Positions 6,543 through 26,208 of a stretch of DNA of 32,563 nucleotides are shown piece by piece. Origin of the DNA: Candidatus Deferrimicrobia bacterium (GTDB lineage Bacteria; Desulfobacterota; Deferrimicrobia; J040); the NCBI GenBank assembly GCA_041563215.1, contig JBFFNJ010000003.1:1-32563 (forward strand), read 5' to 3'. The notes under the pieces are model-generated. The model searched no databases and was not told the DNA's origin. It saw only the letters and a list, made by a program, of their open reading frames with translations. A program made the translations under genes and the position numbers. Position 1 is the stretch's first letter; the number at the start of each line of letters is the position of its first letter.

Positions 6543-7427
6543 TCAGGGACGAACGTCTTCGCTGCTGCCGACCCGGGCCGCCTCCCATCCCAGGATCGCC
6601 TTCTTTCTCGCCGGTCCCCCGCCGTAGTTGCCGAAGGCCCCCGTCGATCTGATAACCCGGTGGCACGGGATGAGATAGGCGACAGGGTTCTGGCCCACGG
6701 CCGTGCCGACGGCTCGGGCGGCCCCGGGGAAACCGGCACTTTCGGCGAGATCACCATACGTGACCACGGCCCCGGGAGGTATGTGCAGCAGTGCCTCCCA
6801 GACCCGGATCTGCAGGTTCGTCCCCGCAAGGTGGAGGCTTAACGGGTATTCGCCCTCCCTCCGGTTCCGGGAAAAAATCCGCTCTATCAGGGGACGGGTA
6901 CCCTTCCGGTCCTCCCGGAATGTTGCCCCGGGCCAGAGCAAAGTGAGATCGGCAAACTTCCGGTCAAACTCTCCCGGTGGAATGAACGTGAGCCTGGTAA
7001 CCCCGCGCTCTGTGGCGGCGATCAGGCATTCTCCGAAGGGGCTGTCGTGAACTCCGTACCGGATGGTCGAACCCTCCCCGAAATTCTTCACCTCACCCGG
7101 CGTCATGGCGTGGACGCTGACCATGAGGTCGTGGAGGCGTCCGGGCCCCGACAGGCCCGCATCGATTGCCGCTTCGAGGACGGTTCGAGACCTCGAGAGG
7201 ACCCGCCGTGCATATTCAGCGGTCAGGAATTGAAGAAACCTCTTCGGGCTGACGCCGGAAAAGCGCCTGAAGAGGCGCTGAAAATGGTATTCGCTCAGTC
7301 CCACGTGCTCTGCCACCTCGGCGAGGGAGGGCTGGCTCCCGGTTTTTCCTTCGAGGAAGCGTATCGCCTTTTCCACTCTCTCGTAATCCCTCGTCAGGGA
7401 GCTCTTTGCAACCGATTGCCGGCTCAT
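6543..7427 (-). CDS. AraC-HTH / methylated-DNA-protein-cysteine methyltransferase fusion (Ada-like, without the N-terminal Zn domain)
   Basis: LAEVAEHVGLSEYHFQRLF HTH; GTNLQIRVWEALLHIP..TYGDLA..ARAVGTAVGQNPVAYLIPCHRVI with the PCHR active site. Confidence 0.9.
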   Translation of the reverse strand: MSRQSVAKSSLTRDYERVEKAIRFLEGKTGSQPSLAEVAEHVGLSEYHFQRLFRRFSGVSPKRFLQFLTAEYARRVLSRSRTVLEAAIDAGLSGPGRLHDLMVSVHAMTPGEVKNFGEGSTIRYGVHDSPFGECLIAATERGVTRLTFIPPGEFDRKFADLTLLWPGATFREDRKGTRPLIERIFSRNRREGEYPLSLHLAGTNLQIRVWEALLHIPPGAVVTYGDLAESAGFPGAARAVGTAVGQNPVAYLIPCHRVIRSTGAFGNYGGGPARKKAILGWEAARVGSSEDVRP

Positions 7428-9788: not shown

Positions 9789-11387
9789 GTGAAAGACTTG
9801 AAATGGCACAAAAGTATCGGATTTAAAAGTGTAATGTCTGTGGGAATCACCGCCGTCCTCGTCAACGGCCTGTTTGGATACCTGACCCTCGCCATTCAGG
9901 AGCGGCATTTAAACGATACCATCCTGCGATCGGCCACCCAGATGAGCGAGACCATAGAAAAATCCATCAAATTCGACATGCTCGAGAACAGGAAGGAGAA
10001 TGCCTACCGCATAATGCGGACGATAGCCGACCAGGAAGGGATCGATCGCGTGAGAATCTACAGCAGCGAGGGCAAGATCATATTCTCCACCGACAGGAGA
10101 GAGTTCGGGTCGATGGTGGACAAGAAAGCCGAGGCGTGCTATGGCTGCCATACCGAGGAGAAGCCGCTGGAAAAGCTTACCACCTCAGCTCGGAACCGAA
10201 TCTTCACCTCCCCCGCAGGCTTGCGGCTTCTCGGCATCGTCAACCCCCTCTCCAACGAGAGTGAGTGTTTCTCTGCTGCCTGCCACTTCCACCCCGAGTC
10301 GCAGAAGGTTCTCGGCGTCATCGACATCACCATGTCCCTCGAGGAGATAGACAAGGAGATTGCCATAACCCGGAATCGGGTCATTTTGTCGAGTGCGCTT
10401 TCCATCATAGTCATATCGACGATCATCGCGATTATATTCATGCGCCTCATCGGCAGGCCCGTCCGGGAGATCATCAAGGGGCCAAGGAGGGTTGCCGGCG
10501 GAGACCTGGAGTACATGATACCGATTGCCACGGACGACGAGATGGGGTTTATCGCGCAATCCTTCAATCGCATGACCCAGAACCTGAAAAGGGCAAACGA
10601 CGAAATCCACGACTGGATCAGGACCCTGGAGAGCAAGGTCGAGGAGAGGACGAAAGAGCTCAACGAGGCGCAGTTTCAGCTCATCCAGTCCGAAAAGTTA
10701 GCCGCCATCGGAAAGATCGCCGCCACCGTCGCCCACGAAATAAACAACCCCCTGAGCGGCATCTTCACCTACGTGAAGCTCATGCAGAGAAAGATTGTCG
10801 AGGGGCACGTGGGAGATGAGGACATCGAGAAATTTGGCGGGTACCTCTCGTCTATGAGCAGGGAGATCGAGCGAACCAGGTCCATCGTGGGGGACCTCCT
10901 CGACTTCACCCGGCCCAAGGAGCCGTCGAGAATAGAGACCAACATAAACAGGGTCATCGATGAGTCGGTCAGGCTCATCACGAACGAGATCCGTATCAGC
11001 AACATCAGGCTGGAAAAGAGCCTGGAGCACCTTCCTAAAATCATGGTTGACCCCTCCCAGATCCAGCAGGTCTTCATAGACACCATGGTCAACTCCTGCC
11101 AGGCAATGGAGGAAGGAGGGCTTCTCACGATACGCTCATTTTATCTTTCCGAGAGCGACGAGGTGGTCGTTGAGATCATCGACACCGGGGTGGGGATCTC
11201 GCCGGAAAATCTGTCGAAGATATTCGATCCCTTCTTTACCACCAAGACCAGGGGAACGGGTCTGGGCCTTTCCGTCGTGTACGGGATCGTCACCCGGCAC
11301 GGCGGGAAGATTGAAGTGGAGAGCGAGGTAGGCAGGGGGACGCTGGTGAGAATCCGGCTCCCGGCTGAAGCGGGGGAGAAACGATAG
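9789..11387 (+). CDS. Sensor histidine kinase with periplasmic heme-c-type motifs, HAMP, HisKA and HATPase_c domains
   Basis: Two TM segments flank a periplasmic domain containing CYGCH and CFSAACH. HAMP (DEMGFIAQSFNRM); H-box VAHEINNPL; DTGVGI, FDPFFTTK and GTGLGL boxes. Confidence 0.93.
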   Translation: MKDLKWHKSIGFKSVMSVGITAVLVNGLFGYLTLAIQERHLNDTILRSATQMSETIEKSIKFDMLENRKENAYRIMRTIADQEGIDRVRIYSSEGKIIFSTDRREFGSMVDKKAEACYGCHTEEKPLEKLTTSARNRIFTSPAGLRLLGIVNPLSNESECFSAACHFHPESQKVLGVIDITMSLEEIDKEIAITRNRVILSSALSIIVISTIIAIIFMRLIGRPVREIIKGPRRVAGGDLEYMIPIATDDEMGFIAQSFNRMTQNLKRANDEIHDWIRTLESKVEERTKELNEAQFQLIQSEKLAAIGKIAATVAHEINNPLSGIFTYVKLMQRKIVEGHVGDEDIEKFGGYLSSMSREIERTRSIVGDLLDFTRPKEPSRIETNINRVIDESVRLITNEIRISNIRLEKSLEHLPKIMVDPSQIQQVFIDTMVNSCQAMEEGGLLTIRSFYLSESDEVVVEIIDTGVGISPENLSKIFDPFFTTKTRGTGLGLSVVYGIVTRHGGKIEVESEVGRGTLVRIRLPAEAGEKR

Positions 11388-11932
11388 GAGCCAGGGCTAT
11401 CTACATCAGGCCCATAGAGGCTGTTGACGACGATGTTGTCGGCTGGTTGCGACAGGATATAAACAGGTTTCTCAACCTGCCCGTGGAGGTGATGGAAATG
11501 ATGACCGCATCTCCGGACTGCTTCGAGGAGAAGAGGAAGCAGTATAATTCCACGAAGATCCTGGGTGAGATGCTCCGGGAGATCCCCACCGATGCCCTGA
11601 AAGTACTCGGGATCATCGACAGCGACATTTCCATACCGATTCTCACCTTTGTTTTTGGCGAGGCCCAGCTTGGCGGTCAGGCAGCCATCGTCTCCCTGAC
11701 CCGGCTCCGCCAGGAATTCTACGGCATGGAACCGAACCGGCATATATTTCTCGACCGTCTCCGCAAGGAGAGCTTCCACGAGCTCGGCCACACCTTCGGC
11801 CTCTACCACTGCGCGGAGGATGCCTGCGTCATGAGGCTATCGAGCACGATCTTCGACGTCGACAGGAAGGGGAGCACGTTCTGCAGGGATTGTTACCTGG
11901 CAATGTTTTCAAAAATGCAGGAAGGAGGGTGA
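11384..11932 (+). CDS. Archaemetzincin-family Zn metalloprotease (peptidase M54)
   Basis: QYNSTKIL, FVFGEAQLGG and AIVSLTRL motifs; HELGHTFGLYHC-x4-CVM Met-turn and C-terminal FCRDC. Start uncertain (ATA 11384 or TTG 11447). Confidence 0.88.
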   Translation: MGARAIYIRPIEAVDDDVVGWLRQDINRFLNLPVEVMEMMTASPDCFEEKRKQYNSTKILGEMLREIPTDALKVLGIIDSDISIPILTFVFGEAQLGGQAAIVSLTRLRQEFYGMEPNRHIFLDRLRKESFHELGHTFGLYHCAEDACVMRLSSTIFDVDRKGSTFCRDCYLAMFSKMQEGG

Positions 11933-11935
11933 GTG

Positions 11936-13300
<1,365 letters not shown>

Positions 13301-13332
13301 GCCCGGCCACCCCTTGATGGGAAAACGGCATG

Positions 13333-13432
13333 TGTGGAAAATTTCCATACGGTGCTGTTTTTTTCAACTCGCTAACATCTTGATAATTATAGAGAAATGA
13401 CGCTTCCGCGGAAAGTGTAGAATAAAGCCACA
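13333..13432. promoter_or_regulatory. Candidate upstream activator sites plus IHF site
   Basis: TGTGGAAAATTTCCATA (13333-13349) and TGTAGAATAAAGCCACA (13416-13432). The minus strand of 13373-13385 reads TATCAAGATGTTA, an exact match to the IHF consensus WATCAANNNNTTR. Confidence 0.6.
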
Positions 13433-13530
13433 GATTCGTCCGGACGGCTTTCAGGCAGCCGCCCCCCTTCTTCCCTGAAATATCTATTGTTTTCAGGTGG
13501 TTGCAAAGTTATCGCGCCCATGTCCCGGGT

Positions 13531-13545
13531 TGGCACGGTCATTGC
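13531..13545 (+). promoter_or_regulatory. Sigma-54 (-24/-12) promoter
   Basis: TGGCACG-GTCA-TTGC, an exact match to TGGCACG-N4-TTGC, directly downstream of a sigma-54 activator gene. Confidence 0.9.
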
Positions 13546-13583
13546 GAATGAAGAGAGTAGAAACGGTTGGTCGGGAGGCGAAA

Positions 13584-13691
13584 ATGGGATACGCGATAAT
13601 AGTCGTCACCTATCTCGTGGTTGCCCTGTTAGCGGCGACAAGAACCGGGCCCGCTGAAAGCGATGGAGCCGTGAGGGTACACCTTCCCTAG
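13584..13691 (+). CDS. Putative 35-aa hydrophobic peptide
   Basis: GGGAGG RBS, then MGYAIIVVTYLVVALLAATRTGPAESDGAVRVHLP; first ATG after the sigma-54 promoter. Confidence 0.5.
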   Translation: MGYAIIVVTYLVVALLAATRTGPAESDGAVRVHLP

Positions 13692-13757
13692 GCAGTGGCG
13701 TTATCTTCTCCTGCCAAAGGGATGCGGGTCGTCATTTCTGAAGGACAGGGGGTAGAC

Positions 13758-14471
13758 ATGAAAGGGGATACCTGCCCGTTTCTCGAAGTCAAGACGGTCA
13801 TATATTGCAAGGCCTTTCCCGTCAAGAAGATGATACCCGTCGAGCGTCTCTCGTCTTCCCGGGGCCTCTGCGGGACCTCCCATTTCCAGGAGTGTTCCCA
13901 TTTCAAGGAGGTAAGCTGCGCCGAGAGAGAGACGCAGAATGTCAGGGGGTTCCTCATCAAATCGGACTACTATTACCACCCGGGGCATCTGTGGGTCTCC
14001 TTCCCGGAAGACAGCGAAAACGACGTGAGGGTGGGAATCGATGATTTTGCCCAGAGGATCATCGGGAAAATTGACAAGGTTTCCCTCCCCCCGACGGGCA
14101 CGGCCGTGAAGGAGGGAAGCGTATGCTTCCTGCTCCACTCCGGCAAGCGCAAGATCCGCCTGGCGGCTCCCGTGACCGGGATCATCAAGGAGGTCAACGA
14201 GAACCTTGTATCCCACCCTGCTGTCATCAACGAGGATCCCTACTGCGAAGGATGGCTGTTCAACGCAAGGCTGACCGGGGACGGGATCAAGGGCCTCTTC
14301 TACGGGAGCGCAGCTCAAAACTGGCTCAAGTGGGACGCCGAGCGGCTCATGAGGGTGTGCGCGGCAAACTTCGGCATCACGGCAACGAACGGAGGTGAGG
14401 CGGTTTCGAACATCAGCGCCCAGCTGAGCACGCAACAGTGGAGCAAGATCGTCGGCATTTTCCTGGAGTAG
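13758..14471 (+). CDS. GcvH-fold protein 1 with Cys-rich N-terminal domain (soluble)
   Basis: N-terminal C-x10-C...C-x7-C; YYHPGHLW, VRVGIDDFAQ, APVTGIIKEVN and INEDPYCEGWL (GcvH fold); C-terminal extension containing TNGG. Confidence 0.85.
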   Translation: MKGDTCPFLEVKTVIYCKAFPVKKMIPVERLSSSRGLCGTSHFQECSHFKEVSCAERETQNVRGFLIKSDYYYHPGHLWVSFPEDSENDVRVGIDDFAQRIIGKIDKVSLPPTGTAVKEGSVCFLLHSGKRKIRLAAPVTGIIKEVNENLVSHPAVINEDPYCEGWLFNARLTGDGIKGLFYGSAAQNWLKWDAERLMRVCAANFGITATNGGEAVSNISAQLSTQQWSKIVGIFLE

Positions 14472-14525
14472 GGGTATGGATTGCAATAAAGGGGTCAACG
14501 CGAACCGGCAAAGGAGGTGAGAACA

Positions 14526-15227
14526 ATGGTCCCCATCCTTGTCATATTGACATTTGCTGCCTTTATCCTGGTCCAGATTGCTCTCGAGAAGAGAGCCGAG
14601 GTGAGGGCAAGGGAGCTGGCGAGCCAGTACGGCGAATCTCCGGAGCTTGCCGTACCTCCACGGGTATCACCCGCCCTTTCGGGGTATGCGGTCCCGGAAG
14701 GCGTGTTTCTCCATCCCGGGCACACCTGGGCCCACCTGGGGCTCACGGGTGAGGCGAGAGTGGGAATCGACGACTTCGCCCGGATGATCGTGGGGGACAT
14801 AGACGGTGTTCTGCTGCCGCGTGAGGGTACCCAGGTTGCGCAGGGAGGCAAGCTGTTTGCCCTGGTCAAGGGGAAGCGGGCGATCGATTTCGTGTCTCCC
14901 CTTGACGGTATCGTCCAGGTGGTCAACGATTACGTCGAACTGTCACCGGAGCGGATAACGAACGACCCGTACCAGTCCGGATGGATACTCGAGATCAGGC
15001 CCACCAATTTCGTAAAGAACATCAAGCGGCTCAGGATAGCTGCCGAGGCGGCCAACTGGTTCGAGAGGGAGATGGAGCGATTTTCGGAGTTTATCGACCG
15101 TCACATGGGACGGCAGCGGGAAGTGGGAGTGACCGCCCGTGATGGTGGCGCCTATCTTGCGGGCATCGTCGAAAAAATGGACGATGAGCTGCTCCAGAAG
15201 CTCGGGAGGGCCTTCTTCGGGCTGTAA
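14526..15227 (+). CDS. Membrane-anchored GcvH-fold protein 2
   Basis: AAGGAGGTG RBS; N-terminal TM MVPILVILTFAAFILVQIAL; FLHPGHTW, RVGIDDFA, SPLDG and NDPYQSGWI motifs; C-terminal RDGG. Confidence 0.85.
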   Translation: MVPILVILTFAAFILVQIALEKRAEVRARELASQYGESPELAVPPRVSPALSGYAVPEGVFLHPGHTWAHLGLTGEARVGIDDFARMIVGDIDGVLLPREGTQVAQGGKLFALVKGKRAIDFVSPLDGIVQVVNDYVELSPERITNDPYQSGWILEIRPTNFVKNIKRLRIAAEAANWFEREMERFSEFIDRHMGRQREVGVTARDGGAYLAGIVEKMDDELLQKLGRAFFGL

Positions 15228-15307
15228 GGGGAAGAAAAGGACCGTGTCAGGCCTTCCCCGGGATATGAGAGCGGTGATGGCGAAACCGGGAGAAAGGAGA
15301 GGAAGCA

Positions 15308-16192
15308 ATGAGCGTGAAGAGGAGAGATTTCCTGAAGATCGCCGGATGCGCGGGGATGGCACTGCTCGGCGGAAGTGATGCCCGGGCCAGAACGAAAGAG
15401 CCGGATCCCGAGTTTTCCGCGATGCTCATCGACACGACGCTTTGTGAGGGCTGCCGCAGCTGCGAAGAGGCCTGCAACGAGAAGAACAGGCTCCCCGAGC
15501 CGGCGACGCCGTTTGCGGAGGGGAGCGTGTATGAGGGGAAAAGGGATACTTCCATCGGCGCCTACACGGTAATCAACCGGTTCCCGAACCCCCGCGATCC
15601 CGGCAGCCCCATATACGTGAGGAGGCAGTGCATGCACTGCAACCAGCCCGCCTGCGCGTCGGCATGCCTTGTTAAGGGGCTCGAGAAAACGCGGCAGGGG
15701 CCGGTCATCTATAACAAGGAGAGGTGCATGGGCTGCAGGTACTGCATGATATCGTGCCCCTTCGACATACCGAAGTTCGAGTATGACAGCCCGTCACCCT
15801 TTATCAAGAAATGCTCCTTCTGTTACGACAGGCAGCTGGTGGGGAAGATTCCCGCGTGTGCCGAGGCGTGCCCCACGGAAGCGACCCTCTTCGGCACCAG
15901 GAGGGAACTTGTGGAGGTTGCGAGAAAGCGCATATACAGGAATCCGGGAAAATACTTCCCCCACATATACGGTGAGCATGAGGTGGGGGGCACCGGCTGG
16001 CTCTACCTCTCTGCAATCCCCTTCGACCAGATCGGTTTCAGGACAGACCTGGGCGCGACGCCCTACCCTGAGCTGACGTCGGGTTTTCTCTACGGGGTTC
16101 CCCTGGTTTTCGTGCTGTGGCCGTCCATGCTGCTTGCCTTGAACCACTTTTCGAGAAAGAAGGGGGAGCGAGGCGATGAAGAGAAAGAATGA
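15308..16192 (+). CDS. Tat-exported 4x[4Fe-4S] electron-transfer protein (HybA/HmcB/NrfC family)
   Basis: Tat signal KRRDFLK. Sixteen Cys in CEGCRSCEEAC, CMHCNQPACASAC, CMGCRYCMISCP and CSFC..PACAEACP; IYGEHEVGGTGWLYLS; C-terminal TM anchor. Confidence 0.92.
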   Translation: MSVKRRDFLKIAGCAGMALLGGSDARARTKEPDPEFSAMLIDTTLCEGCRSCEEACNEKNRLPEPATPFAEGSVYEGKRDTSIGAYTVINRFPNPRDPGSPIYVRRQCMHCNQPACASACLVKGLEKTRQGPVIYNKERCMGCRYCMISCPFDIPKFEYDSPSPFIKKCSFCYDRQLVGKIPACAEACPTEATLFGTRRELVEVARKRIYRNPGKYFPHIYGEHEVGGTGWLYLSAIPFDQIGFRTDLGATPYPELTSGFLYGVPLVFVLWPSMLLALNHFSRKKGERGDEEKE

Positions 16193-17468
16193 AGCGAGGA
16201 AGGGCAATCCGGGGCCGGCGCCGATGCTTCTTCAGAAGGCAGGAGAGTTCATCCGCTTTTTTCTCGGCGAGCTCAGGCCGAAAGGGAGGGTGCTCACTCC
16301 CTTCAACGTCATCAGCGGGGCGATCATACTGCTCGGCGCCGTACTCGTCGTGATCCGCTTTGCCAGGGGGCTCGGCGCGGTGACGAACCTGAACCAGGAT
16401 TACCCCTGGGGCCTCTGGATCGGTTTCGACGTGGTGACGGGAGTGGCCTTCGCCGGTGGCGCATACGTGCTCACCTTCGTCGTCCACGTCCTGCGGTTCA
16501 AGAAGTACGAACCCATCGTGCGGGCCACGGTTTTAAACGGATTTCTCGCCTATGTTTTCTACGCCGGCGCACTCCTCCTGGACCTGGGCCGCCCCTGGAA
16601 CGTGATCAACCCGATCATCGGGAAAGCCTTCGGCCTCAGCTCCGTGCTCTTCCTGGTGGCGTGGCACTTCATGCTCTACATGATATGCGAGTTCGTTGAA
16701 TTCGCTCCGGCCGTTGCCGAGTGGCTGAACTGGAAGAGGGTGCGCAAGTTCGTCATGAGCCTGACCATGGGCGCCGTCATATTCGGGATAACGCTCTCAA
16801 CGCTCCATCAGTCGGGACTGGGGGCGCTCTTCCTCCTCGCACCGTCGAAGATTCACCCCCTGTGGTACTCGGGGAGCATACCCGTTCTCTTCTTCGTTTC
16901 GAGCATATTTGCGGGCCTTTCCATGGTGATCATCGAGAGCTCCATATCCCACAGGATTTTCAACAGCCAGATGGATGGCGAGCACCGGGCGTCCCATGGC
17001 GAGATCGTCCTGGGACTTGGGAAAGGGGCAGCCTGCGCCCTCTTCGTGTACCTGTTTCTCAAGATCATCGATTTTGTCCACGGCAGGCACTGGGACCTGA
17101 TCGCCACGCCCATGGGGTACTGGTACCTCCTGGAGACGGTTGGATTCGTGCTCATTCCTGCGGGCCTGTTCGTTTACGCGGTGCGGAAAGAAAGCGTCCC
17201 CATGGTTCAGTTCACCGCTGTCCTGGCGGCAATCGGGGTTGTGCTGAACCGGCTCAACGTCTCCATCATCGCCTTCAAGTGGTACGAGCCGGTGCGGTAC
17301 GTTCCCTCTTGGATGGAGGTGGAGATAACCCTCGCGGTTATCTTTCTCGAGATCTGGGTCTTTCGGTGGGTCGTGAACAGAATGCCCGTTTTGCGGAAGT
17401 ACCGGGAACCGGAAGGTGAGCCGGTAAAAGAAGCGGAGGTGGTGAAATGGAGACCTTCACATATGTAG
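16176..17468 (+). CDS. NrfD/PsrC-family integral membrane protein (HybB/HmcC-like)
   Basis: GLGAVTNLNQDYPWGLWIGFDV..GVA, DLGRPW, LSTLHQSGLG, KIHPLWYS, NRLNV and YVPSWMEV motifs; about 10 TM segments. Confidence 0.92.
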   Translation: MKRKNEARKGNPGPAPMLLQKAGEFIRFFLGELRPKGRVLTPFNVISGAIILLGAVLVVIRFARGLGAVTNLNQDYPWGLWIGFDVVTGVAFAGGAYVLTFVVHVLRFKKYEPIVRATVLNGFLAYVFYAGALLLDLGRPWNVINPIIGKAFGLSSVLFLVAWHFMLYMICEFVEFAPAVAEWLNWKRVRKFVMSLTMGAVIFGITLSTLHQSGLGALFLLAPSKIHPLWYSGSIPVLFFVSSIFAGLSMVIIESSISHRIFNSQMDGEHRASHGEIVLGLGKGAACALFVYLFLKIIDFVHGRHWDLIATPMGYWYLLETVGFVLIPAGLFVYAVRKESVPMVQFTAVLAAIGVVLNRLNVSIIAFKWYEPVRYVPSWMEVEITLAVIFLEIWVFRWVVNRMPVLRKYREPEGEPVKEAEVVKWRPSHM

Positions 17469-18142
17469 ACATCTATGCGACAAAGGGAATCGAGTACATC
17501 ATCGTCATTGCCTTTCTCTTCATCGTCGTTTTCTTCTGGCGCTTCATCTGGCCCCCCCTTCCGGAGGTGGCAGAGGAGGAACGCTTCCCTGGAGCGGCGG
17601 AATGGTTTCACGTTCCGGAGGGGTACTATTTCCACCAGGGGCACAGCTGGCTGCGAAGAGAGCGCCCGGACCTGGTAACCGTCGGGCTCGATGATTTCGC
17701 CCAGAAACTGCTGGGGAGGGCTGAAAATCTCCGGCTTCCCGGTTCGGGTGCCACCATCCGTCAGGGGGAGGTAGGGTGGAGTATAGATGTCGCTTCGAAG
17801 ACCCTCGATATGCTCTCCCCCGTCGATGGGGAGGTCGTCGCTTTGAACGCCGAGGTGATGGAATTTCCCGAGATCGTCAACCAGGATCCCTACGGGAGGG
17901 GCTGGTTGATGAAGATCAGGCCCACGAGGCTCTCAGGGAACATCACCCACCTCCTCTCGGGAAGGCTGGCGAAGGACTGGGTCGAAGGGATCGTCGACTT
18001 TCTTCGGGAGAGGGTGGGGGGAGGCCTGGGGCCCGTGTACCACGACGGCGGACAGCCCGTATCGGGTATTGCCCGGGCCCTCTATGGTGACCGATGGCAC
18101 GAGCTGGTTGAGGAGGTTTTTCGAACGGGGGAGGAGGTTTGA
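17447..18142 (+). CDS. Membrane-anchored GcvH-fold protein 3
   Basis: GGAGGTGG RBS; N-terminal DIYATKGIEY plus TM helix; YFHQGHSW, TVGLDDFAQ, SPVDGEVVALN and NQDPYGRGWL motifs; C-terminal HDGG. Confidence 0.87.
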   Translation: METFTYVDIYATKGIEYIIVIAFLFIVVFFWRFIWPPLPEVAEEERFPGAAEWFHVPEGYYFHQGHSWLRRERPDLVTVGLDDFAQKLLGRAENLRLPGSGATIRQGEVGWSIDVASKTLDMLSPVDGEVVALNAEVMEFPEIVNQDPYGRGWLMKIRPTRLSGNITHLLSGRLAKDWVEGIVDFLRERVGGGLGPVYHDGGQPVSGIARALYGDRWHELVEEVFRTGEEV

Positions 18143-18268: not shown

Positions 18269-19078
18269 TTATCCGGCCGAAGATTTTGCCTGGCGCACCT
18301 GAAAATCCTTCGTGAAATCCTTGAGGAGGCCCATCGCCTTTTCCCGCAGCTCGGGCGGGACGTGGAAAAACCGTATTTCTATCGTTTTTGCTTCCGCCAA
18401 GGATAGTTCGAAGAGATCGGTGTCGAGGCCGAGGTTCAGCGCAATCCTGTTCGTCGCGGCAGCAAGGAGGTGCTTTTCCTCGATGATCGTCTCCCCCGTG
18501 GCTGCATAATCCCTTTCGACCCCCAGTATCTCGGCGAATTTCACGACCGCTTCGGCGCACGGTTCGATTCCCGTCGAAAGGGGTGTCAGGCAGAGATGAA
18601 AGTGCCAGGGGTCGGGCCAGTCCACACCGCAGTAGTACTTGATGAAACCCGCTTTTTCCCTGTCTACCTTCCTGATCTTCTCCCTGGCTTCGGCCAGCTT
18701 TATCTTCTCGGTGAGGGACAGGTGGCTTGCCCGGAGATCGGGGATGTCCGTCAACAGTATGTTGAGGACGCCCTTTATGTTCCTGAGAATGTCAAAGGCA
18801 CCCCGTCCCAGCAGGATAACCCTCCCCTGGGTGGCGAAAAAAAGGATGGACTCCTTCAGCAGGCATTTGAGCACGTGGATGTCGCCCGTGAGGCGGTCGA
18901 TGATATTCGGGGCTTTCTCCGCGATTACCCTTTTGGCCGTACCCTCGTCGGCTATCTCGATGAGCTTCTTCTGTATCTCCACGCGGTCTACGATCCGGTA
19001 GCCCATCCGGGACGATACCTTTTCGACCAACTCCTGTGCCCCGGCACCGTATTGCCGGGAAACCGTTATGACACCCAT
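18269..19078 (-). CDS. Cytidylate kinase-like family protein
   Basis: VITVSRQYGAGA, VILLGRGA and DREKAGFIKYY..DWPDPWHFHLCL motifs. Start set at ATG 19078 after a G-rich RBS. Confidence 0.8.
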   Translation of the reverse strand: MGVITVSRQYGAGAQELVEKVSSRMGYRIVDRVEIQKKLIEIADEGTAKRVIAEKAPNIIDRLTGDIHVLKCLLKESILFFATQGRVILLGRGAFDILRNIKGVLNILLTDIPDLRASHLSLTEKIKLAEAREKIRKVDREKAGFIKYYCGVDWPDPWHFHLCLTPLSTGIEPCAEAVVKFAEILGVERDYAATGETIIEEKHLLAAATNRIALNLGLDTDLFELSLAEAKTIEIRFFHVPPELREKAMGLLKDFTKDFQVRQAKSSAG

Positions 19079-19424
19079 TGCCATCCCCCCTTGGTGAGAG
19101 GTTGAGAAAATGACGCCCTTTCTTATCTTTTCAGCAACAGAATCGGCATGTTTCGATAAACTCCCCGTATCTAAATTGTAAAATATTTGACTATCCAGGC
19201 ATAGACATTTATCGTTGCGCGGTCTGCCCGCGGCCTTTAATCGGGGGTCTTTTGGCCGGGGTGTGCTGCCGGGGCTCTCTTTTTTCGGGACGGCGGAGGC
19301 TGAATTTGATACATATAGGGGAGGTTCCCCGTTGCTTCGCCTTTGCCGGTAAACAGCGGGCGGGCAGCGGAAGGCCATGAATTGCCGGTTTCGGCGCCCG
19401 TTTCGAGGGCCGGGCGCAGGTGGG

Positions 19425-20024
19425 ATGATTATGGTCACCATTGCCTTGCAGCTTCTGGGAATTTTTACCTTTCTGACGGGTGTCTCGTCACTCGGGAGGA
19501 AGCTCGGTAAAAACCCCGACAGGGATTCCGCCGAGCGGCTGAGCAGGGTCGGCCACCTCCTGATCTACGCATGCCTGGTGTTTCCCGCCACCCTCGGGAT
19601 CGTCCACCCGGGGCTTGGCGGCTTCGACCGGATAATCGGTATCAGCCCGATACCGTTCCGGAATATCGCGCTCCCGGCGGGATGCATTCTTCTTCTTGCG
19701 GGCCTTACCCTTATGTTTGCCGCCAATCAGAGCCTCAAATACCGCGGGAAGGGGGCCCCGGCATTCAAGCTGACGAAAAAGCTCGTTGTCGGTGGCATCC
19801 ACAGAAGGGTTCGAAACCCCATGTCTCTCGGGTTTTACCTCACCTGCGTCGGGGTAAGCATGGCAGCAGGGTCAACCTATTGCACGCTCGGTTCCCTTCT
19901 CGTGCTCATCCCTTCCCATCTTTTTTATCTCGTATATTTAGAGGAGCGCGAGCTCGAGATACGCTTCGGCCAGACCTACCGGGATTACAAAAGGAGCGTC
20001 CCCTTCATGATCCCGAAACTTTGA
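19425..20024 (+). CDS. Isoprenylcysteine carboxyl methyltransferase / PEMT-family membrane protein
   Basis: Multi-TM; LVVGGIHRRVRNPMSLG and EERELEIRFGQTYRDYKRSVP family motifs. Confidence 0.85.
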   Translation: MIMVTIALQLLGIFTFLTGVSSLGRKLGKNPDRDSAERLSRVGHLLIYACLVFPATLGIVHPGLGGFDRIIGISPIPFRNIALPAGCILLLAGLTLMFAANQSLKYRGKGAPAFKLTKKLVVGGIHRRVRNPMSLGFYLTCVGVSMAAGSTYCTLGSLLVLIPSHLFYLVYLEERELEIRFGQTYRDYKRSVPFMIPKL

Positions 20025-21162: not shown

Positions 21163-24100
21163 CTACGGCCTCACCGGCCCGACGGGAATCTGTTCCACCA
21201 CCGCAGGCGCCCTGCCGGATAGAACATCCGTCACCAGACCGTAAAATTCCTGCTCTCTGCCGGGTTCGGGGGTCGAAAGCAGGCTGATGTTGACTCTCTT
21301 CGCCGGATAGAGGAAATGCTGCTCGGCAAGAGCGGTGCGGACCATCTGCCTGACTGCGGCCCTGACCAGGTGCCCCTCCTCGCTGGAGGGAGGCGGGACG
21401 ACGACGATCAAATGGCCCTCCTCCTCGACCGCCCGCAGGGACTCACCGAACAGGGACAGTACCGTGCTCAGGTGGCCGAGGAATTTTTCCATGTCCTCGA
21501 GGGGAAATTCGAGGATCGGACCTTCCGGAGACGACCTGCCGGTCAAGAGGATGAAACCGCCGATCCGGGGTCCTCCCAGGAGGGTGTTGTCGAGCCAGGG
21601 CTCGATGACCCTGGGATCTGAGAGGTCTATCTCGCGGGTGAGCGTGTCGAAGGACTGCCCTTCCCGGGCCTTTCCCGCTGTGTCTTTCGGCCTGAGGATG
21701 GTTACCTGACCCGGGGATTTTTGCGATTGCACGATCTGGGTGACGTGACCGCCCTTTCCTGCTATGGCCTCTCCTATCGGGGAAATGGCGGAGCCGTCGA
21801 CACCCGCCGAACCCGCGGCCAGGACGAGGAAGGACCTTCCCGCTATGGGCCTCTCTGCTCCCTTCTGCTCCGGCGGGAAGGAGAGAAAATGCGGCAGAGA
21901 AGAGACGCTGATAAAGCGGTCCTCCATGAACTTCGCGTTTTTGGCCCCGAACAGAACGGCGTCGGCAACCTGCCCGTTCGTGGGGGGGTGGTCCGGAACG
22001 GTGGACCGGAACCACTCCTGTATCCTTCCGTACCAGGATTCCATCTCTCCACGGGTCGATCTGGGGAGCTTGCTCTGCCTCACGGCGGTGAGGTAGGAAG
22101 CGGCTGCTTTTTCCCTGTTTTCTGGCTTCTCGGTCCGGTCGAAGGAGAGGATGAACTGCTCCCTGAGCTTCGATCCGTCAGAGGGTTTGAGTCCCGGAAT
22201 AAACTCGAACTGGGCGGCAAAGGTTTTCGCGTAGTTGCTCATCACCCAGTCCATCCGGGGGCCCGCGATGAGGCTCGGGGCGACGTCGGCTATGAAGATC
22301 CCTTCGCCTGCCAGGGAGTCTTTGAGTGCCAGGGTGAGGGCTTTGATGGCGATCTTCGAAACCGTGTAGATGGTCCTAAAGAGGTAGGGATGGTCGGAAT
22401 AATGGGTCGACACGTTGACGATGGCGCCGCCGCCCTCCTGATTTTTCATGATGGGGCAAAGCAGCGATGTGGCATACCAGGGGCCGAGGAAGTTGCTTCT
22501 AAGGACCAGATCCCAGTTCTCCCGGTGATCACGCATGACGTTGGTAATGAGAGAAAAGCTCCCCCCTGCTCCGGCATTGTTGACGAAAGAATCTATGCGG
22601 GTGAAACGCCTGATGGTTTCATCGATGAGAGCGCGAACCTGATCCGGAGAAGATATGTCGGTGTCGATCCAGGCCGTTCTTCCCCCCGTGGAGCGCATTG
22701 CTGCAAGGACCCCTTCTCCCGCCTTGAGCGCTTCTCTCGCGCTGGCTGCCTCCTCGCCGGTGAGCCCCGTGGTTCCGGGATGGCGGCTCGCAGCGACGAC
22801 GGAGGCCCTCTCCGCTGCGAAGCGAAGGGAAATTTCCCTGCCCAGGTTGCGGATTCCTCCCGTCACCACCGCCACCCTGCCCGCCATGGTCCCGACTTTT
22901 TCATCGGGCTCCCCGGGGAGCCCCGCGATGCTGTTTTGCTCGTCAGGGAGAATGACCGCCCCGGAGACGCGCTTTCCCTCCTCTGCGAGCCACAGGATCG
23001 AAGCTGCTGTTTTCCGGGGATCGGCCTGTTTGTTCCGTCCGTCTGTCCTCCCGGGAAGGATCAGGCCGATGTTGACGGCGCTCACGGTGACGGGCGACGT
23101 CTTTTCCGCGTGGGCCTTGCGCATGAGGGCGCGCTCCATCGATTCCGTGGCTACCGCGGGCCTGAGCATTGCCTGGAACACCTGAACCAGGTCGCGCTCT
23201 TTTATCGAGGGAACGCCGGAGAGGTCCGGCCCGACCAGGATGATCGTACCGTCTGTCCCGTCCCTGTCCATCCTCTTTTCCGCCTGCCAGGACAGAAGGC
23301 GGGGAACGAAACCGAACTGCTCCACTGCATCTGTCCACTCTCCGTAGGGAATGTTCGCGAGCGACCGCTTCCAGTCCACGCTTCCGGAGAAGTGGAGGAG
23401 CAGGTCTATCCGCGGAAGATTGTCGAACAGTTCCTGCACCTCGGCCAGGTTGCCGATGTTCGTGGGGCATGCGGTGGCCGTGCCGTCGAAACCGGAACTG
23501 TTTACCTTCCGGGCGAGGCTTTCCAGATCCTCCGCCATGCTTCCAGCAAGGTATATGTCAGCCCCCGAGCGGGCCAGTGCGAGAACCGATTCCTCGAAGA
23601 GGGACCTGTCGTTTCCGAATAGGCGGTGGAGGCTGACCAGGGCAACTTTTCCGATCATGTTCGGGTATTGCCTGAGGGCTGCCGGAGAGGGGACGACGCC
23701 GGGAGGCTGCTCGTAGGTAACTCCTCCCATGGGGATCCGCTGGCCGCCGACGGTCCTTCGAAACTCCGGGCGGTGCATGTCCAGGGCGACGCGGGCGAAA
23801 TCCCGGGGGAGCACGAAAGAGTGAGTCACGGTCCGGTCGAGGGTGTCCTTCCGCAGTGCTTCAGCATCGACGTGTCTCCCGATCCTTGCGCGGGCAAGAG
23901 AGCCCTTGTCGAATACCCCTGAGCCGATCTGTATGCGCTCGGTGTGGACCGCAGAGGGGTTTAAGGAGAGGACGGTGATATTTTTGTCGGCCAGGAGCCA
24001 CGCGAGGTAATCGCCGAGGGCAAGCTTCGCCGACTGTGCCGATGTATAGGGCAGCCTGCCGGGGTAGGCGTGCAGGACGTGGCGGTGGATGCTCTCGCTG

Positions 24101-26208
24101 TAGAAGGTGCCGATCATGACGATCAGACCTCCTTCCTTCTGTTTCTCCATCCTTTTTGCCGCCTCGAGGCTTGCAAGCCAGGCGCCGGTTAGGTGAATGT
24201 TCACCGCCTCGCGGTACTGGTCGAAGTGCTCCTCCTGGTAAACAGAGCCGAACTCGACGGGGCCGGAGACACCGGCGTTGTTGTAGAGGATGTCGATCCT
24301 GCCGAACTCGCGGCTGATTTTGTCGAACATCTCGCCCACGTACTTCGAGTCGCTCACGTCCCCCTGGACGGTGAGGGTCCTGTTCGTGAGGCCCAGGTGG
24401 CCGATGAGGTCCTCCATGTCGGCCCGGGTCTCCTCCAGGGGTTCGGGGCGCCTTCCCGTGATCACCACGTTTGCGCCGTGGGTAGCCGCCTCGAGGGCAA
24501 GGGATCTGCCCATGCCTGTCCCGCCCCCGGTGATGACGACCACCTTGCCGGCCAGGGAGGTGTCGGGGTAGCGGACGTAGTTGAAGGAGTGAGTCTTCGA
24601 TATGGTGTCGCGGAGCAGGTGAGTGGCCCGTGCGACGTTGCTCTCCTCACCCAGGGAGATGAAGAGCTGGTAGAGGCGGTCGACACTTCCCCTGGCGGCG
24701 TAAAAGGCGGCAATCTCGTCGTGGACCTCCCCGGGCAGCTCGCTGAAGAACCGGTACGCCTCGAGGGCTCCCTTGACGGCCAGCGTGAACTGCTGTTCCA
24801 GCTTCAGCTTTTCATCGGGGAAAGCGCCGTCGCGCACGAAGCGGCAGGCCATGATTGCCGGGATGCCCTTCGGGGCCTTGCCCGAAGCTTTCCCCGCCAT
24901 GAGAGCCTCCACGAAGGAGCGTTCGAACACCCAGTGGGCCCGGTCGTGGCCGTCGATGAACCTCGCCGAAGGTCGCTCCAGCTCAGGGAGCACGTGTATG
25001 ATCCTTGGCTTCCCCGTCACGCCGAGGGGATCGATGCTGTCTTCCCCCCTTTTCTTCGTCCTGCCCCTGCTGCTCTTTATCATCCCCACCGACTCCCTGA
25101 GGAGTTCGGCAAATTCCCTCGCTTTCTTTTCCGCCCACGGCTCGGAGACGATGTTCCCTTTTTCCAGCCGGAGCCCCTCGTATGCGGGGTCGGCGCTCAG
25201 GGCGAAGCAGCGTATCGCCACCTCGAGCAGCCCTGACACCTCTTTCCGGGACAGGCCTTTTACGGAGGGGTCCTGTTTCAGCCTCCGCAGAATCGTCAGT
25301 GCCTGCTCCGGGTTTCCCTCGCCCAGTATCTTTCGTGCCTCGTCCACCTCTTCGCTGGAAATTACCTCCCGCGTCTCGCCGAGGAGGGTTTCCATGAGCT
25401 TCCGGTAGTTGATGCCCAGGGCACGGGCACGGTAGACCACCACGTTTCTCTTTTCCACGTCGTCGCCGAACCGCGCGTTGAGCTCCTCCAGCCGAAACTC
25501 GTCGGGTTCGTACTCGGTTCCCAGGATCCGGTCGAAGTAGGCGAAGTCACGGTCTCTTGCCGCCTCTTCGGCGATGAAGCGGTTCAGGTCGCTCACGTCG
25601 TCCCCTCCCGGGCTCGGCTCTTTGTCGTTGTATGCCGACTCGCAGAGGACGGCGAGTATGTGGGGCAGGTCGAGGACCCATTCGAGAACGGGGTGGAGGA
25701 CTGCCTGGAGGAGCAGGCCGGGGCTGTTCTTCGCCCGCGCAAAAAAGGCAGAGGTGATGTAGATCGTCGGGACGCCCCCGCCGGGAACGAGGTTTTTTCT
25801 TCCCGACCAGAGAAGGTCCCCCTTTTTCTCCACGAGCATGACCTCGCAGCTCGGGCGCGCGTTCTCCCGGGGGAAGCCTGTCATCTCTCCCAGGTCCACG
25901 ATACGCACGCGGATCTCCTTTTTCCTGAGGACCCGGGCAACCTGATTTTCTATGGCTTCTGCGGCAGCAGGGTCCACCGTCTGCAAAATCGAGGGGACGG
26001 GCCGTTTTTTGAGGAGAGCGAGAATACCTTTCAGGGATGACCCCGGGAGATTCGACACCTTCTTCTCGGCCTTCTTCCCCATGATGAGGGATGCTGTCTG
26101 GCGGATTTCCTGGTCCGTAAACGGCCGGTCCCCCGGCGCCTTTTTGGTGATGGGAGGCCGGTTACGACGCCTGCTCCTGGCGTTTTTTGAAGCGCAAACT
26201 CTATTCAT
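21163..26208 (-). CDS. Giant multidomain SDR oxidoreductase, malonyl-CoA reductase-like, with unknown N-terminal region
   Basis: AAGGAG RBS 7 nt before ATG. SDR-A has TGGGTGMG, NNAG and YPGRLPY, followed by a degenerate Rossmann domain. SDR-B has TGGIRNLG, NNAG, NVST and YLFRTIYTVSK, followed by a second degenerate domain. Confidence 0.85.
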   Translation of the reverse strand: MNRVCASKNARSRRRNRPPITKKAPGDRPFTDQEIRQTASLIMGKKAEKKVSNLPGSSLKGILALLKKRPVPSILQTVDPAAAEAIENQVARVLRKKEIRVRIVDLGEMTGFPRENARPSCEVMLVEKKGDLLWSGRKNLVPGGGVPTIYITSAFFARAKNSPGLLLQAVLHPVLEWVLDLPHILAVLCESAYNDKEPSPGGDDVSDLNRFIAEEAARDRDFAYFDRILGTEYEPDEFRLEELNARFGDDVEKRNVVVYRARALGINYRKLMETLLGETREVISSEEVDEARKILGEGNPEQALTILRRLKQDPSVKGLSRKEVSGLLEVAIRCFALSADPAYEGLRLEKGNIVSEPWAEKKAREFAELLRESVGMIKSSRGRTKKRGEDSIDPLGVTGKPRIIHVLPELERPSARFIDGHDRAHWVFERSFVEALMAGKASGKAPKGIPAIMACRFVRDGAFPDEKLKLEQQFTLAVKGALEAYRFFSELPGEVHDEIAAFYAARGSVDRLYQLFISLGEESNVARATHLLRDTISKTHSFNYVRYPDTSLAGKVVVITGGGTGMGRSLALEAATHGANVVITGRRPEPLEETRADMEDLIGHLGLTNRTLTVQGDVSDSKYVGEMFDKISREFGRIDILYNNAGVSGPVEFGSVYQEEHFDQYREAVNIHLTGAWLASLEAAKRMEKQKEGGLIVMIGTFYSESIHRHVLHAYPGRLPYTSAQSAKLALGDYLAWLLADKNITVLSLNPSAVHTERIQIGSGVFDKGSLARARIGRHVDAEALRKDTLDRTVTHSFVLPRDFARVALDMHRPEFRRTVGGQRIPMGGVTYEQPPGVVPSPAALRQYPNMIGKVALVSLHRLFGNDRSLFEESVLALARSGADIYLAGSMAEDLESLARKVNSSGFDGTATACPTNIGNLAEVQELFDNLPRIDLLLHFSGSVDWKRSLANIPYGEWTDAVEQFGFVPRLLSWQAEKRMDRDGTDGTIILVGPDLSGVPSIKERDLVQVFQAMLRPAVATESMERALMRKAHAEKTSPVTVSAVNIGLILPGRTDGRNKQADPRKTAASILWLAEEGKRVSGAVILPDEQNSIAGLPGEPDEKVGTMAGRVAVVTGGIRNLGREISLRFAAERASVVAASRHPGTTGLTGEEAASAREALKAGEGVLAAMRSTGGRTAWIDTDISSPDQVRALIDETIRRFTRIDSFVNNAGAGGSFSLITNVMRDHRENWDLVLRSNFLGPWYATSLLCPIMKNQEGGGAIVNVSTHYSDHPYLFRTIYTVSKIAIKALTLALKDSLAGEGIFIADVAPSLIAGPRMDWVMSNYAKTFAAQFEFIPGLKPSDGSKLREQFILSFDRTEKPENREKAAASYLTAVRQSKLPRSTRGEMESWYGRIQEWFRSTVPDHPPTNGQVADAVLFGAKNAKFMEDRFISVSSLPHFLSFPPEQKGAERPIAGRSFLVLAAGSAGVDGSAISPIGEAIAGKGGHVTQIVQSQKSPGQVTILRPKDTAGKAREGQSFDTLTREIDLSDPRVIEPWLDNTLLGGPRIGGFILLTGRSSPEGPILEFPLEDMEKFLGHLSTVLSLFGESLRAVEEEGHLIVVVPPPSSEEGHLVRAAVRQMVRTALAEQHFLYPAKRVNISLLSTPEPGREQEFYGLVTDVLSGRAPAVVEQIPVGPVRP

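Follow-up and report, generated by a model that had tools for sequence, protein, structure and literature searches.

In anaerobic respiration the standard membrane anchor is a pair of an iron-sulfur (FeS) protein and an NrfD-family membrane subunit, and the Hmc operon encodes besides such a pair the multihaem cytochrome HmcA and the proteins HmcD, HmcE and HmcF, of which HmcD, like NhcD, is a small membrane protein. Here we describe a relative of these systems from the window, a stretch of 32,563 nucleotides of a Candidatus Deferrimicrobia bacterium (contig JBFFNJ010000003.1 of assembly GCA_041563215.1), in which an FeS/NrfD module of an already known type is encoded together with three atypical proteins of the GcvH fold (G1, G2 and G3) behind a sigma-54 promoter. 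The operon supplies the structural genes of a conserved system of nine genes, and we favour, at a probability of roughly 0.45, the reading that it encodes an inducible link from periplasm to menaquinone of the Hmc/Nhc/HybAB kind, with the GcvH-fold proteins as its partners on the cytoplasmic side. The main text of a review of NrfD proteins (PMC8076601) lists about sixteen complexes and does not use the word 'glycine'. A GcvH-fold protein serving a redox complex is known in LbpA, for which the portions of PMC6067878 drawn on here report a strictly conserved lipoyl lysine, dedicated ligases and a place in the shdr neighbourhood.

The FeS protein starts with a twin-arginine motif (MSVKRRDFLK); its 16 cysteines form four groups of the ferredoxin type, and its C-terminus is a hydrophobic helix with a basic tail behind it. 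It matches Pfam Fer4_11 at 2.4e-19, its closest solved relative is FdnH (1kqf_B, 2.5e-36), and its best NCBIfam match is HmcB at 354.9 bits (cut-off 420), followed by HybA at 229.9 (cut-off 263). The membrane protein matches Pfam NrfD at 2.5e-13 (PF03916, 50.8 bits against a gathering cut-off of 25.8), and its best NCBIfam match is HmcC at 419.5 bits (cut-off 550), followed by HybB at 238.5 (cut-off 450); a sequence search of the PDB with it returned no match. Both proteins score under the HmcB, HmcC, HybA and HybB cut-offs and so are relatives of those families and not members. Identity of the NrfD protein to Escherichia coli HybB is 27.5% (106 of 385 aligned positions). When a 21-member family of the NrfD protein was aligned with HybB (annotation NC_000913), and the residues that PMC8076601 gives for quinone binding and the proton path were followed, D109, Y84, Y99, Y141, E148, E155, H184, E291, H200 and R329 proved conserved in 21/21, R89 and S129 in 20/21 and D58 in 18/21. 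With these functional residues kept across the family, the subunit looks fit to bind quinone and conduct protons as a working NrfD protein does.

G1, G2 and G3 match Pfam GCV_H at 4.2e-22, 5e-18 and 6.7e-24 respectively and retain GcvH motifs such as HxW, DDFAQ and NxDPYGxGW, and yet they fall below every NCBIfam GcvH cut-off, scoring 84.7, 68.0 and 93.1 bits on NF002270 against its cut-off of 117. In an AlphaFold2 model of G3 (predicted local distance difference test score, pLDDT, 80.2) residues 9-34 form a membrane helix and residues 55-166, approximately, the H-protein core, and the C-terminus consists of two helices with a low-confidence loop between them. In Foldseek the top matches of this model were solved H-proteins, with target-normalised template modelling (TM) scores of 0.83-0.93; a PDB sequence search with G3 matched ordinary H-proteins only, and Atlas look-ups gave GCV_H clusters only. 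The predicted structure of G1 is poor, with a mean pLDDT of 57.7 and values below 50 over the N-terminal 57 residues. The loop is the most conserved feature of the C-terminal extension and is kept as (D/T)GG in all subfamilies, reading ITATNGGE in G1, VTARDGGA in G2 and PVYHDGGQ in G3; hence DGG in G3 and G2, NGG in the G1 of the window, where 12 of the 13 other aligned G1 orthologues have DGG, and TGG in sister proteins from further loci that are described below. Pfam PF28260 is listed on about half of the G3 homologues in the protein database and, as judged from that listing, may already catalogue part of the G3 family as a domain.

Ahead of its GcvH fold G1 has a domain with four cysteines (C6, C17, C38 and C46) that are invariant in 14/14 orthologues and in 28/28 copies of the domain. 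A profile of this domain found 325 proteins in a library of 1.84 billion; of ten matches scanned, seven had GCV_H (one of these also NUDIX) and three had no Pfam family, and some short matches resemble stand-alone domains or truncated proteins of the G1 type. One 489-aa protein of the representative library (P0140) joins a NUDIX hydrolase, two copies of a CPFL-type four-cysteine domain and a GcvH fold. In G2 the lysines and arginines summed over 17 orthologues number 6 before the membrane helix and 86 after it, and in G3 (21 sequences) 20 lysines and arginines versus 47 acidic residues precede the helix and 52 versus 34 follow it, a charge distribution which suggests that the N-termini lie outside and the GcvH domains in the cytoplasm.

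The lipoyl lysine was followed in an alignment of 207 family members from 81 loci together with the two ordinary H-proteins of the metagenome-assembled genome (MAG; 2.33 Mb, 86.5% complete) to which the window belongs. At the canonical column lysine occurs in 5/35 proteins of the G1 type, 7/38 of the G2 type, 4/93 of the G3 type and 0/41 others, and a basic residue one position further on is common. The lipoyl lysine is thus not conserved, and lipoylation cannot be a requirement of the family as a whole; judged by sequence, the GcvH-fold proteins are not lipoate carriers. The ordinary H-protein genes of the MAG lie on contigs C295 and C34, the second of them (G000:C34:7982-8332, minus strand, locus L002) as a 175-aa open frame with about 40 residues before the core and with the lysine of its ESGK motif kept.

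The gene set is widely distributed. A word-indexed protein search gave 805 homologues of G3 at E <0.001, and in a collection of one genome per species 307 loci encode a G3 relative, from Thermodesulfobacteriota (including Syntrophales), Deferrimicrobiota, Bacteroidota, Ignavibacteriota, Calditrichota and Gemmatimonadota according to the genome records; a few records, Arthrobacter and Limnocylindria among them, seem to reflect binning errors. Synteny was counted by tblastn with the window proteins in the best 80 of the 307 loci. Conservation of synteny, on which the first-pass annotation of this DNA had staked its reading, was found: the G3 homologue has an HmcC-like gene as its neighbour in 71 of the 80 loci, and an HmcB-like gene in 70. 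A sigma-54 activator gene is present in 56, a kinase gene in 54 and an archaemetzincin gene in 53, and all five occur jointly in 44, the misses being mostly at contig ends. Kinase, archaemetzincin and activator belong to the conserved set. Gene order differs between lineages while content is constant.

Beyond the known set with its regulators, and overlapping frames, no cluster of open reading frames (ORFs) is common to more than 21 of the 80 loci. An anchored peptide of 88 aa with an ADGG end occurs in 21 loci, and a fourth paralogue has a second type of cysteine-rich N-terminal domain (CxWM...C...CxxC). A class III tetrahaem cytochrome gene is found in 15/80 loci, next to the module in the examples inspected, one of which was checked with Pfam. 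Pairs of a membrane multihaem cytochrome and a cytochrome b561 lie near the cluster in 9-10 of the 80; at L011:2005-4690 and L029:2236-3929 (both minus strand) a membrane-anchored multihaem cytochrome c and a cytochrome b561 (Ni_hydr_CYTB) adjoin it. Such a combination resembles the Cbc-type quinol oxidoreductases that metal reducers have. Genes that fuse a receiver domain (REC) to the GcvH fold, taken up below, stand upstream of the HmcBC-like pair in L054, L031, L039, L043, L053, L084 and L085, and a second kinase with a CxxCH motif is encoded beside them in L039, L043, L054 and L085.

In the window nine genes of the same direction span 9789-18142 on the plus strand, three for regulators followed by the six of the sigma-54 unit (Table 1). 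The first-pass annotation had given the unit at 13531-18142 as one apparent transcription unit that couples a HybA/HybB-like module to three atypical GcvH-fold proteins, closed by a convergent gene. An ORF check found all six reading frames as described, and coordinates, gene list, families and promoter all hold; what requires amendment is that the unit does not stand alone, the three upstream regulators being part of the conserved set. It had also seen no catalytic partner, and indeed the other larger ORFs of the window gave no match to hydrogenases, molybdoenzymes, multihaem cytochromes, GcvP/T/L or the Hdr families, nor was any cytochrome, cytochrome b, CCG or lipoate ligase family match found among its ORFs.

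Table 1. Coordinates of the nine-gene system and its control elements in the window
Feature	Position	Strand	Basis or remark
Sensor histidine kinase	9789..11387	+	Pfam HAMP, HisKA, HATPase_c
Archaemetzincin-family Zn metalloprotease	11447..11932	+	NCBIfam NF033823
NtrC-type sigma-54 enhancer-binding response regulator (REC, AAA+, HTH_8)	11933..13300	+	Pfam
17-bp palindrome TGTGGAAAATTTCCATA	13333..13349	strandless	Candidate activator site, or terminator stem of upstream operon
Second TGT-N11-ACA element TGTAGAATAAAGCCACA	13416..13432	strandless	Read from the sequence; putative function
Sigma-54 promoter TGGCACGGTCATTGC, −24 TGGCAC, −12 TTGC (TGGCAC-N5-TTGC)	13531..13545	+	Pattern match
35-aa single-helix hydrophobic micropeptide MGYAIIVVTYLVVALLAATR...	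13585..13691	+	Conserved micro-ORF
G1, soluble GcvH-fold protein with N-terminal 4-Cys domain	13758..14471	+	Pfam GCV_H
G2, N-terminal membrane anchor and GcvH fold	14517..15227	+	Pfam GCV_H
Tat-exported (twin-arginine translocation), tail-anchored 4x[4Fe-4S] protein, HmcB/HybA type	15308..16192	+	NCBIfam, Pfam Fer4_11
NrfD-family membrane subunit, HmcC/HybB type, without redox cofactor motif	16176..17468	+	NCBIfam, Pfam NrfD
G3, membrane-anchored GcvH-fold protein	17447..18142	+	Pfam GCV_H
Cytidylate-kinase-like convergent ORF, closes the unit	18269..19441	-	ORF list, family match

The start of G3 overlaps the 3' end of the NrfD gene by 22 nt, an overlap that recurs in many homologous loci (for example 7001 versus 7019), and the longest ORF for G1 starts at 13695. 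A homologue of the micro-ORF (M-G/A-Y followed by a hydrophobic helix) occupies this position in 17 of the 18 window-type loci, the window counted, and so it is not a chance ORF. Contigs from the RNA libraries X15-X18, which stem from two studies, match the operon at at least 95%, and single contigs bridge the G1/G2, G2/FeS, FeS/NrfD and NrfD/G3 junctions, although such contigs are no proof of transcription; those of X15 and X16 extend over flanking genes too, and the cover from X17 and X18 is seen only up to 18175, a limit that does not count as evidence.

The promoter at 13531 is one of seven strict sigma-54 matches in the MAG. A strict match stands at the corresponding position in 11 of the 18 window-type loci and five further loci read GGCAY-N5-TTGC; this conservation, the spacing of the −24 GG and −12 GC and the adjacent gene for an enhancer-binding protein together point to a genuine sigma-54 promoter. 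The 230-nt spacer between it and the activator gene holds both palindromic elements. The first of these had been put forward as a 17-bp activator site, and the palindrome is there and could serve as one; but it has a T-run (GTGCTGTTTTTTT) behind it, and the stretch (13331-13366) also scores as terminator-like for the kinase/archaemetzincin/activator operon. Both the exact 17-mer pattern and its 13-nt core occur once in the MAG. Palindromes of the TGT-N11-ACA type recur in the orthologous intergenic regions, and elements like TGTAGAATAAAGCCACA, which lies some 100 nt 5' of the −24 element, are found at the corresponding place in L006, L044 and L062 as GTGT(A/G/T)(A/G)A...(C/T)CACA. A regulon search of the MAG with the degenerate TGT-N11-ACA pattern gave 587 loose and 5 stricter matches and no convincing link to sigma-54.

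The kinase has a membrane-flanked sensor domain, in which CYGCH starts at residue 117 and CFSAACH at residue 160, and behind this domain come HAMP, HisKA and HATPase domains. A CxxCH and, some 40 residues on, a Cx4CH are present in 40/40 kinase orthologues from which the sensor region was recovered, and such conserved motifs suggest a periplasmic sensor with covalently attached c-type haem. The archaemetzincin reaches 160.5 bits on its NCBIfam family (cut-off 145) and carries HELGHTFGLYH, and its gene end abuts the activator start codon. The activator matches Sigma54_activat at 6.6e-71, Response_reg at 5.1e-30 and HTH_8 at 2.4e-12.

The G3 profile also reaches beyond this gene arrangement, matching at E <1e-30 in 82 of the 301 genomes sampled from the phylum of the window, and so, with the 307 loci of the species collection, misannotation of the family is widespread. 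From these matches 26 sister loci that are not G3 orthologues were picked by hand, one per genome and with long flanks favoured, and so they are not a random sample. Kinase, activator and archaemetzincin adjoin the GcvH-fold gene in 19 of the 26, and Hdr-like genes directly adjoin it in 11, as HdrC/HdrB/HdrA-like genes in five, a large HdrA-like flavoprotein alone in five and an HdrC-like gene in one; the CCG, Fer4_8/17 and flavoprotein domains were confirmed by Pfam. The sister-locus kinases are PAS kinases by Pfam and their ORFs lack CxxCH. Where inspected, a strict sigma-54 promoter lies immediately 5' of the GcvH-fold gene in three of four loci. At L088:9362-16456, and likewise in L090, L091, L106 and L107, a sigma-54-promoted operon starts with the gene of a cysteine-rich, lysine-less GcvH-fold protein and continues with HdrC-like, HdrB-like (two CCG domains) and 1494-aa HdrA/GltD-like flavoprotein genes, adjoined by genes for a PAS kinase, a sigma-54 activator and an archaemetzincin. 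A search of the MAG at E <1e-6 found neither an HdrB nor an HdrC homologue of this type.

These observations establish the gene content, the families, the fold and the promoter, the conservation of the set and of the HybB functional residues, and the loss of the lysine; from them we infer how the products assemble, their topology, which way electrons flow and what the kinase senses. The membrane kinase, with its c-type haem-binding motifs, would signal to the NtrC-type activator, which would drive the promoter at 13531, and so a periplasmic redox signal may switch the module on. The FeS protein and the NrfD subunit would make up a cofactor-less quinone/proton module like those of HmcBC, NhcBC or HybAB, in which electrons pass between carriers in the periplasm and the menaquinone pool and their passage is coupled to proton movement through the NrfD subunit. 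Small c3-type cytochromes are the probable carriers: some lineages encode them beside the module, and the MAG has c3-like cytochrome genes (31-37% identity) on three other contigs. The micropeptide and the membrane-anchored G2 and G3 may sit on the quinone module, and the soluble four-cysteine G1 could join on the cytoplasmic face. The GcvH-fold proteins would then be a distinct family of cytoplasmic partners or adaptors, possibly metal- or thiol-based through their cysteine domains, that plug into different redox engines, the quinone module here and HdrC/HdrB/HdrA-like enzymes in the sister loci. The partnership is supported by the position of their genes inside the operon, by the overlap of one of them with the NrfD gene, by the membrane anchors on two paralogues and by co-inheritance across phyla.

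A number of points weigh against this proposal. An NrfD subunit without haem cannot carry electrons across the membrane, and therefore cytoplasmic GcvH-fold proteins cannot simply take electrons from the periplasmic FeS protein. Their contact with the NrfD or FeS protein is a proposal, and no fusion of HmcC with GcvH was met among the longer G3 forms, in a weak search that gave one 417-aa match with GCV_H only. Complex prediction for the HmcC-like and G3 families gave ipSAE values of 0.08 and 0.07 against a mark of 0.32, which counts neither way. Two loci of the 80, L036 and L069, have GcvH-fold genes without HmcBC in spite of at least 6.8 kb of flank on each side, and among the sister loci HmcBC is beside the GcvH-fold gene in 0/26. 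The constant in the wider family is therefore a lysine-less GcvH-fold protein with the kinase/activator/archaemetzincin trio, and the redox engine varies; the family tracks this trio more faithfully than it tracks HmcBC and, being found with the one and without the other, need not be a respiratory subunit. REC-GcvH fusions occur in loci of Ignavibacteriota, Bacteroidota and Calditrichota (L054:3655-4815, for instance, with REC at 9.8e-29 and GCV_H at 4e-18) and suggest a direct control of the GcvH-fold protein by phosphorylation.

The association with the trio and the REC fusions make a regulatory rather than an electron-carrying role a serious rival, which we regard as unlikely but well ahead of the other alternatives. 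The GcvH-fold proteins would then be part of the kinase/activator/archaemetzincin circuit as feedback regulators, membrane-tethered adaptors or protease substrates, and HmcBC one output of several. The sigma-54 promoters directly in front of sister GcvH-fold genes are in keeping with this, as is the placing of the archaemetzincin gene with the two-component genes and outside the sigma-54 unit, and the invariant (D/T)GG loop, which the model places at low confidence between its two helices, would suit a recognition site exposed at the surface. However, the window-type genes lie within the structural operon, with the 22-nt overlap already described, and two paralogues are anchored in the membrane; in the sister Hdr-like operons the GcvH-fold gene comes first and looks like the partner of the enzyme and not of the regulators; and the proteins have no DNA-binding or enzymatic output domain of their own.

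A broader view that takes in parts of both is distinctly doubtful. It would have the lysine-less GcvH-fold class under the control of a kinase (of the c-haem or PAS kind), an activator and an archaemetzincin, serving as redox partners or adaptors for HmcBC- or HdrCBA-type engines, with the archaemetzincin acting on the (D/T)GG loop. Were it true, the loop would be the first physiological substrate of bacterial archaemetzincins and the H-protein fold would have a lipoate-independent role in energy metabolism.

It is improbable that the FeS/NrfD pair is an orphan anchor, of the hydrogenase-2 HybA/HybB or formate dehydrogenase type, for an enzyme encoded elsewhere and that the GcvH-fold genes are incidental. 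HybA and HybB are indeed the second-best NCBIfam matches, the functional residues of HybB are conserved and the MAG has four molybdopterin-enzyme matches on other contigs, as well as four other NrfD genes. Yet the scores remain under the HybA and HybB cut-offs, no hydrogenase or molybdoenzyme was seen among the ORF clusters inspected beyond the known set in the 80 loci, and conservation of the GcvH-fold neighbours in several phyla is not explained by chance adjacency. A match to the [NiFe]-hydrogenase large subunit (PF00374) was not found in the MAG either, an absence that is not proven given its 86.5% completeness.

Least probable is that G1-G3 are lipoylated carriers like GcvH or LbpA, shuttling reducing equivalents or sulfur on a lipoyl arm. 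In the window the canonical column does hold a lysine in G1 and in G2, and G3 has one a residue further on, and sister-locus HdrB/HdrC-like neighbours recall LbpA beside sHdr. Yet the lysine is kept in all 95 LbpA sequences of the alignment in PMC6067878 and in few members of any subfamily here, the proteins score under the GcvH cut-offs, the window has no gene for lipoate ligase, GcvP/T or Hdr, and the MAG gave no HdrB/C homologue at the threshold stated above.

If the GcvH-fold proteins do partner the module, as we favour, a cofactor-less quinone/proton subunit would have in them a component of a new kind on its cytoplasmic side, and in some phyla this component would be under direct phosphorylation control. 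The lysine-less (D/T)GG family, its company of kinase, activator and archaemetzincin and its alternation between HmcBC-like and Hdr-like engines also give testable handles on proteins annotated as 'glycine cleavage system H protein'. The first-pass annotation knew of no characterised example, and the literature searched, supplements not covered, gave no description of the cluster, nor of GcvH-fold partners, the haem-motif kinase, the archaemetzincin or the alternation with Hdr-like engines.

Elsewhere in the window two further ORFs may be recorded, both on the minus strand. At 21163-26208 lies a 1681-aa ORF with two stretches that match short-chain dehydrogenase families of Pfam, most strongly around residues 555-782, and at 6543-7427 an Ada-like fusion joins AraC-type HTH domains to a 6-O-methylguanine-DNA methyltransferase domain.

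Set beside the known systems, the locus is nearest to Hmc and Nhc of sulfate reducers, which give its best NCBIfam matches: it shares with them a Tat-exported 4x[4Fe-4S] protein, an NrfD subunit of the ten-helix type and a small membrane peptide encoded alongside, and in 15 of the 80 homologous loci a c3-type cytochrome gene. It differs in its scores below the Hmc equivalog cut-offs (354.9 versus 420 and 419.5 versus 550) and in having no gene for a 16- or 9-haem cytochrome and none for an HmcE/HmcF-type cytochrome b or CCG protein; in their stead it has three GcvH-fold proteins, and it is under sigma-54 and two-component control and occurs outside sulfate reducers. With HybA/HybB of E. coli hydrogenase-2 it has in common the two-protein architecture, the tail anchor of the FeS protein and, by the residues listed in PMC8076601, the quinone-binding and proton-path positions of HybB; in contrast, identity to HybB is low, hydrogenase genes are absent from the locus and none was found in the MAG, and the E. 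coli hyb operon (NC_000913 annotation) has no GcvH-fold counterpart.

From the canonical GcvH the three proteins take the fold and the sequence motifs named above, and they depart from it in the missing conserved lysine, in the added anchor and extension and in having no gcvP or gcvT near. LbpA is likened to them as a GcvH-fold protein devoted to a redox complex and not to glycine cleavage, and the remark of the first-pass annotation on LbpA and sHdr stands in so far as sister loci place the family beside HdrC/HdrB/HdrA-like genes; the likeness ends at the lipoyl lysine, which the window family has lost, and the window has no Hdr or ligase family. What the family adds to the LbpA plan are membrane anchors, cysteine-rich N-terminal domains or receiver domains, and the (D/T)GG C-terminal extension.

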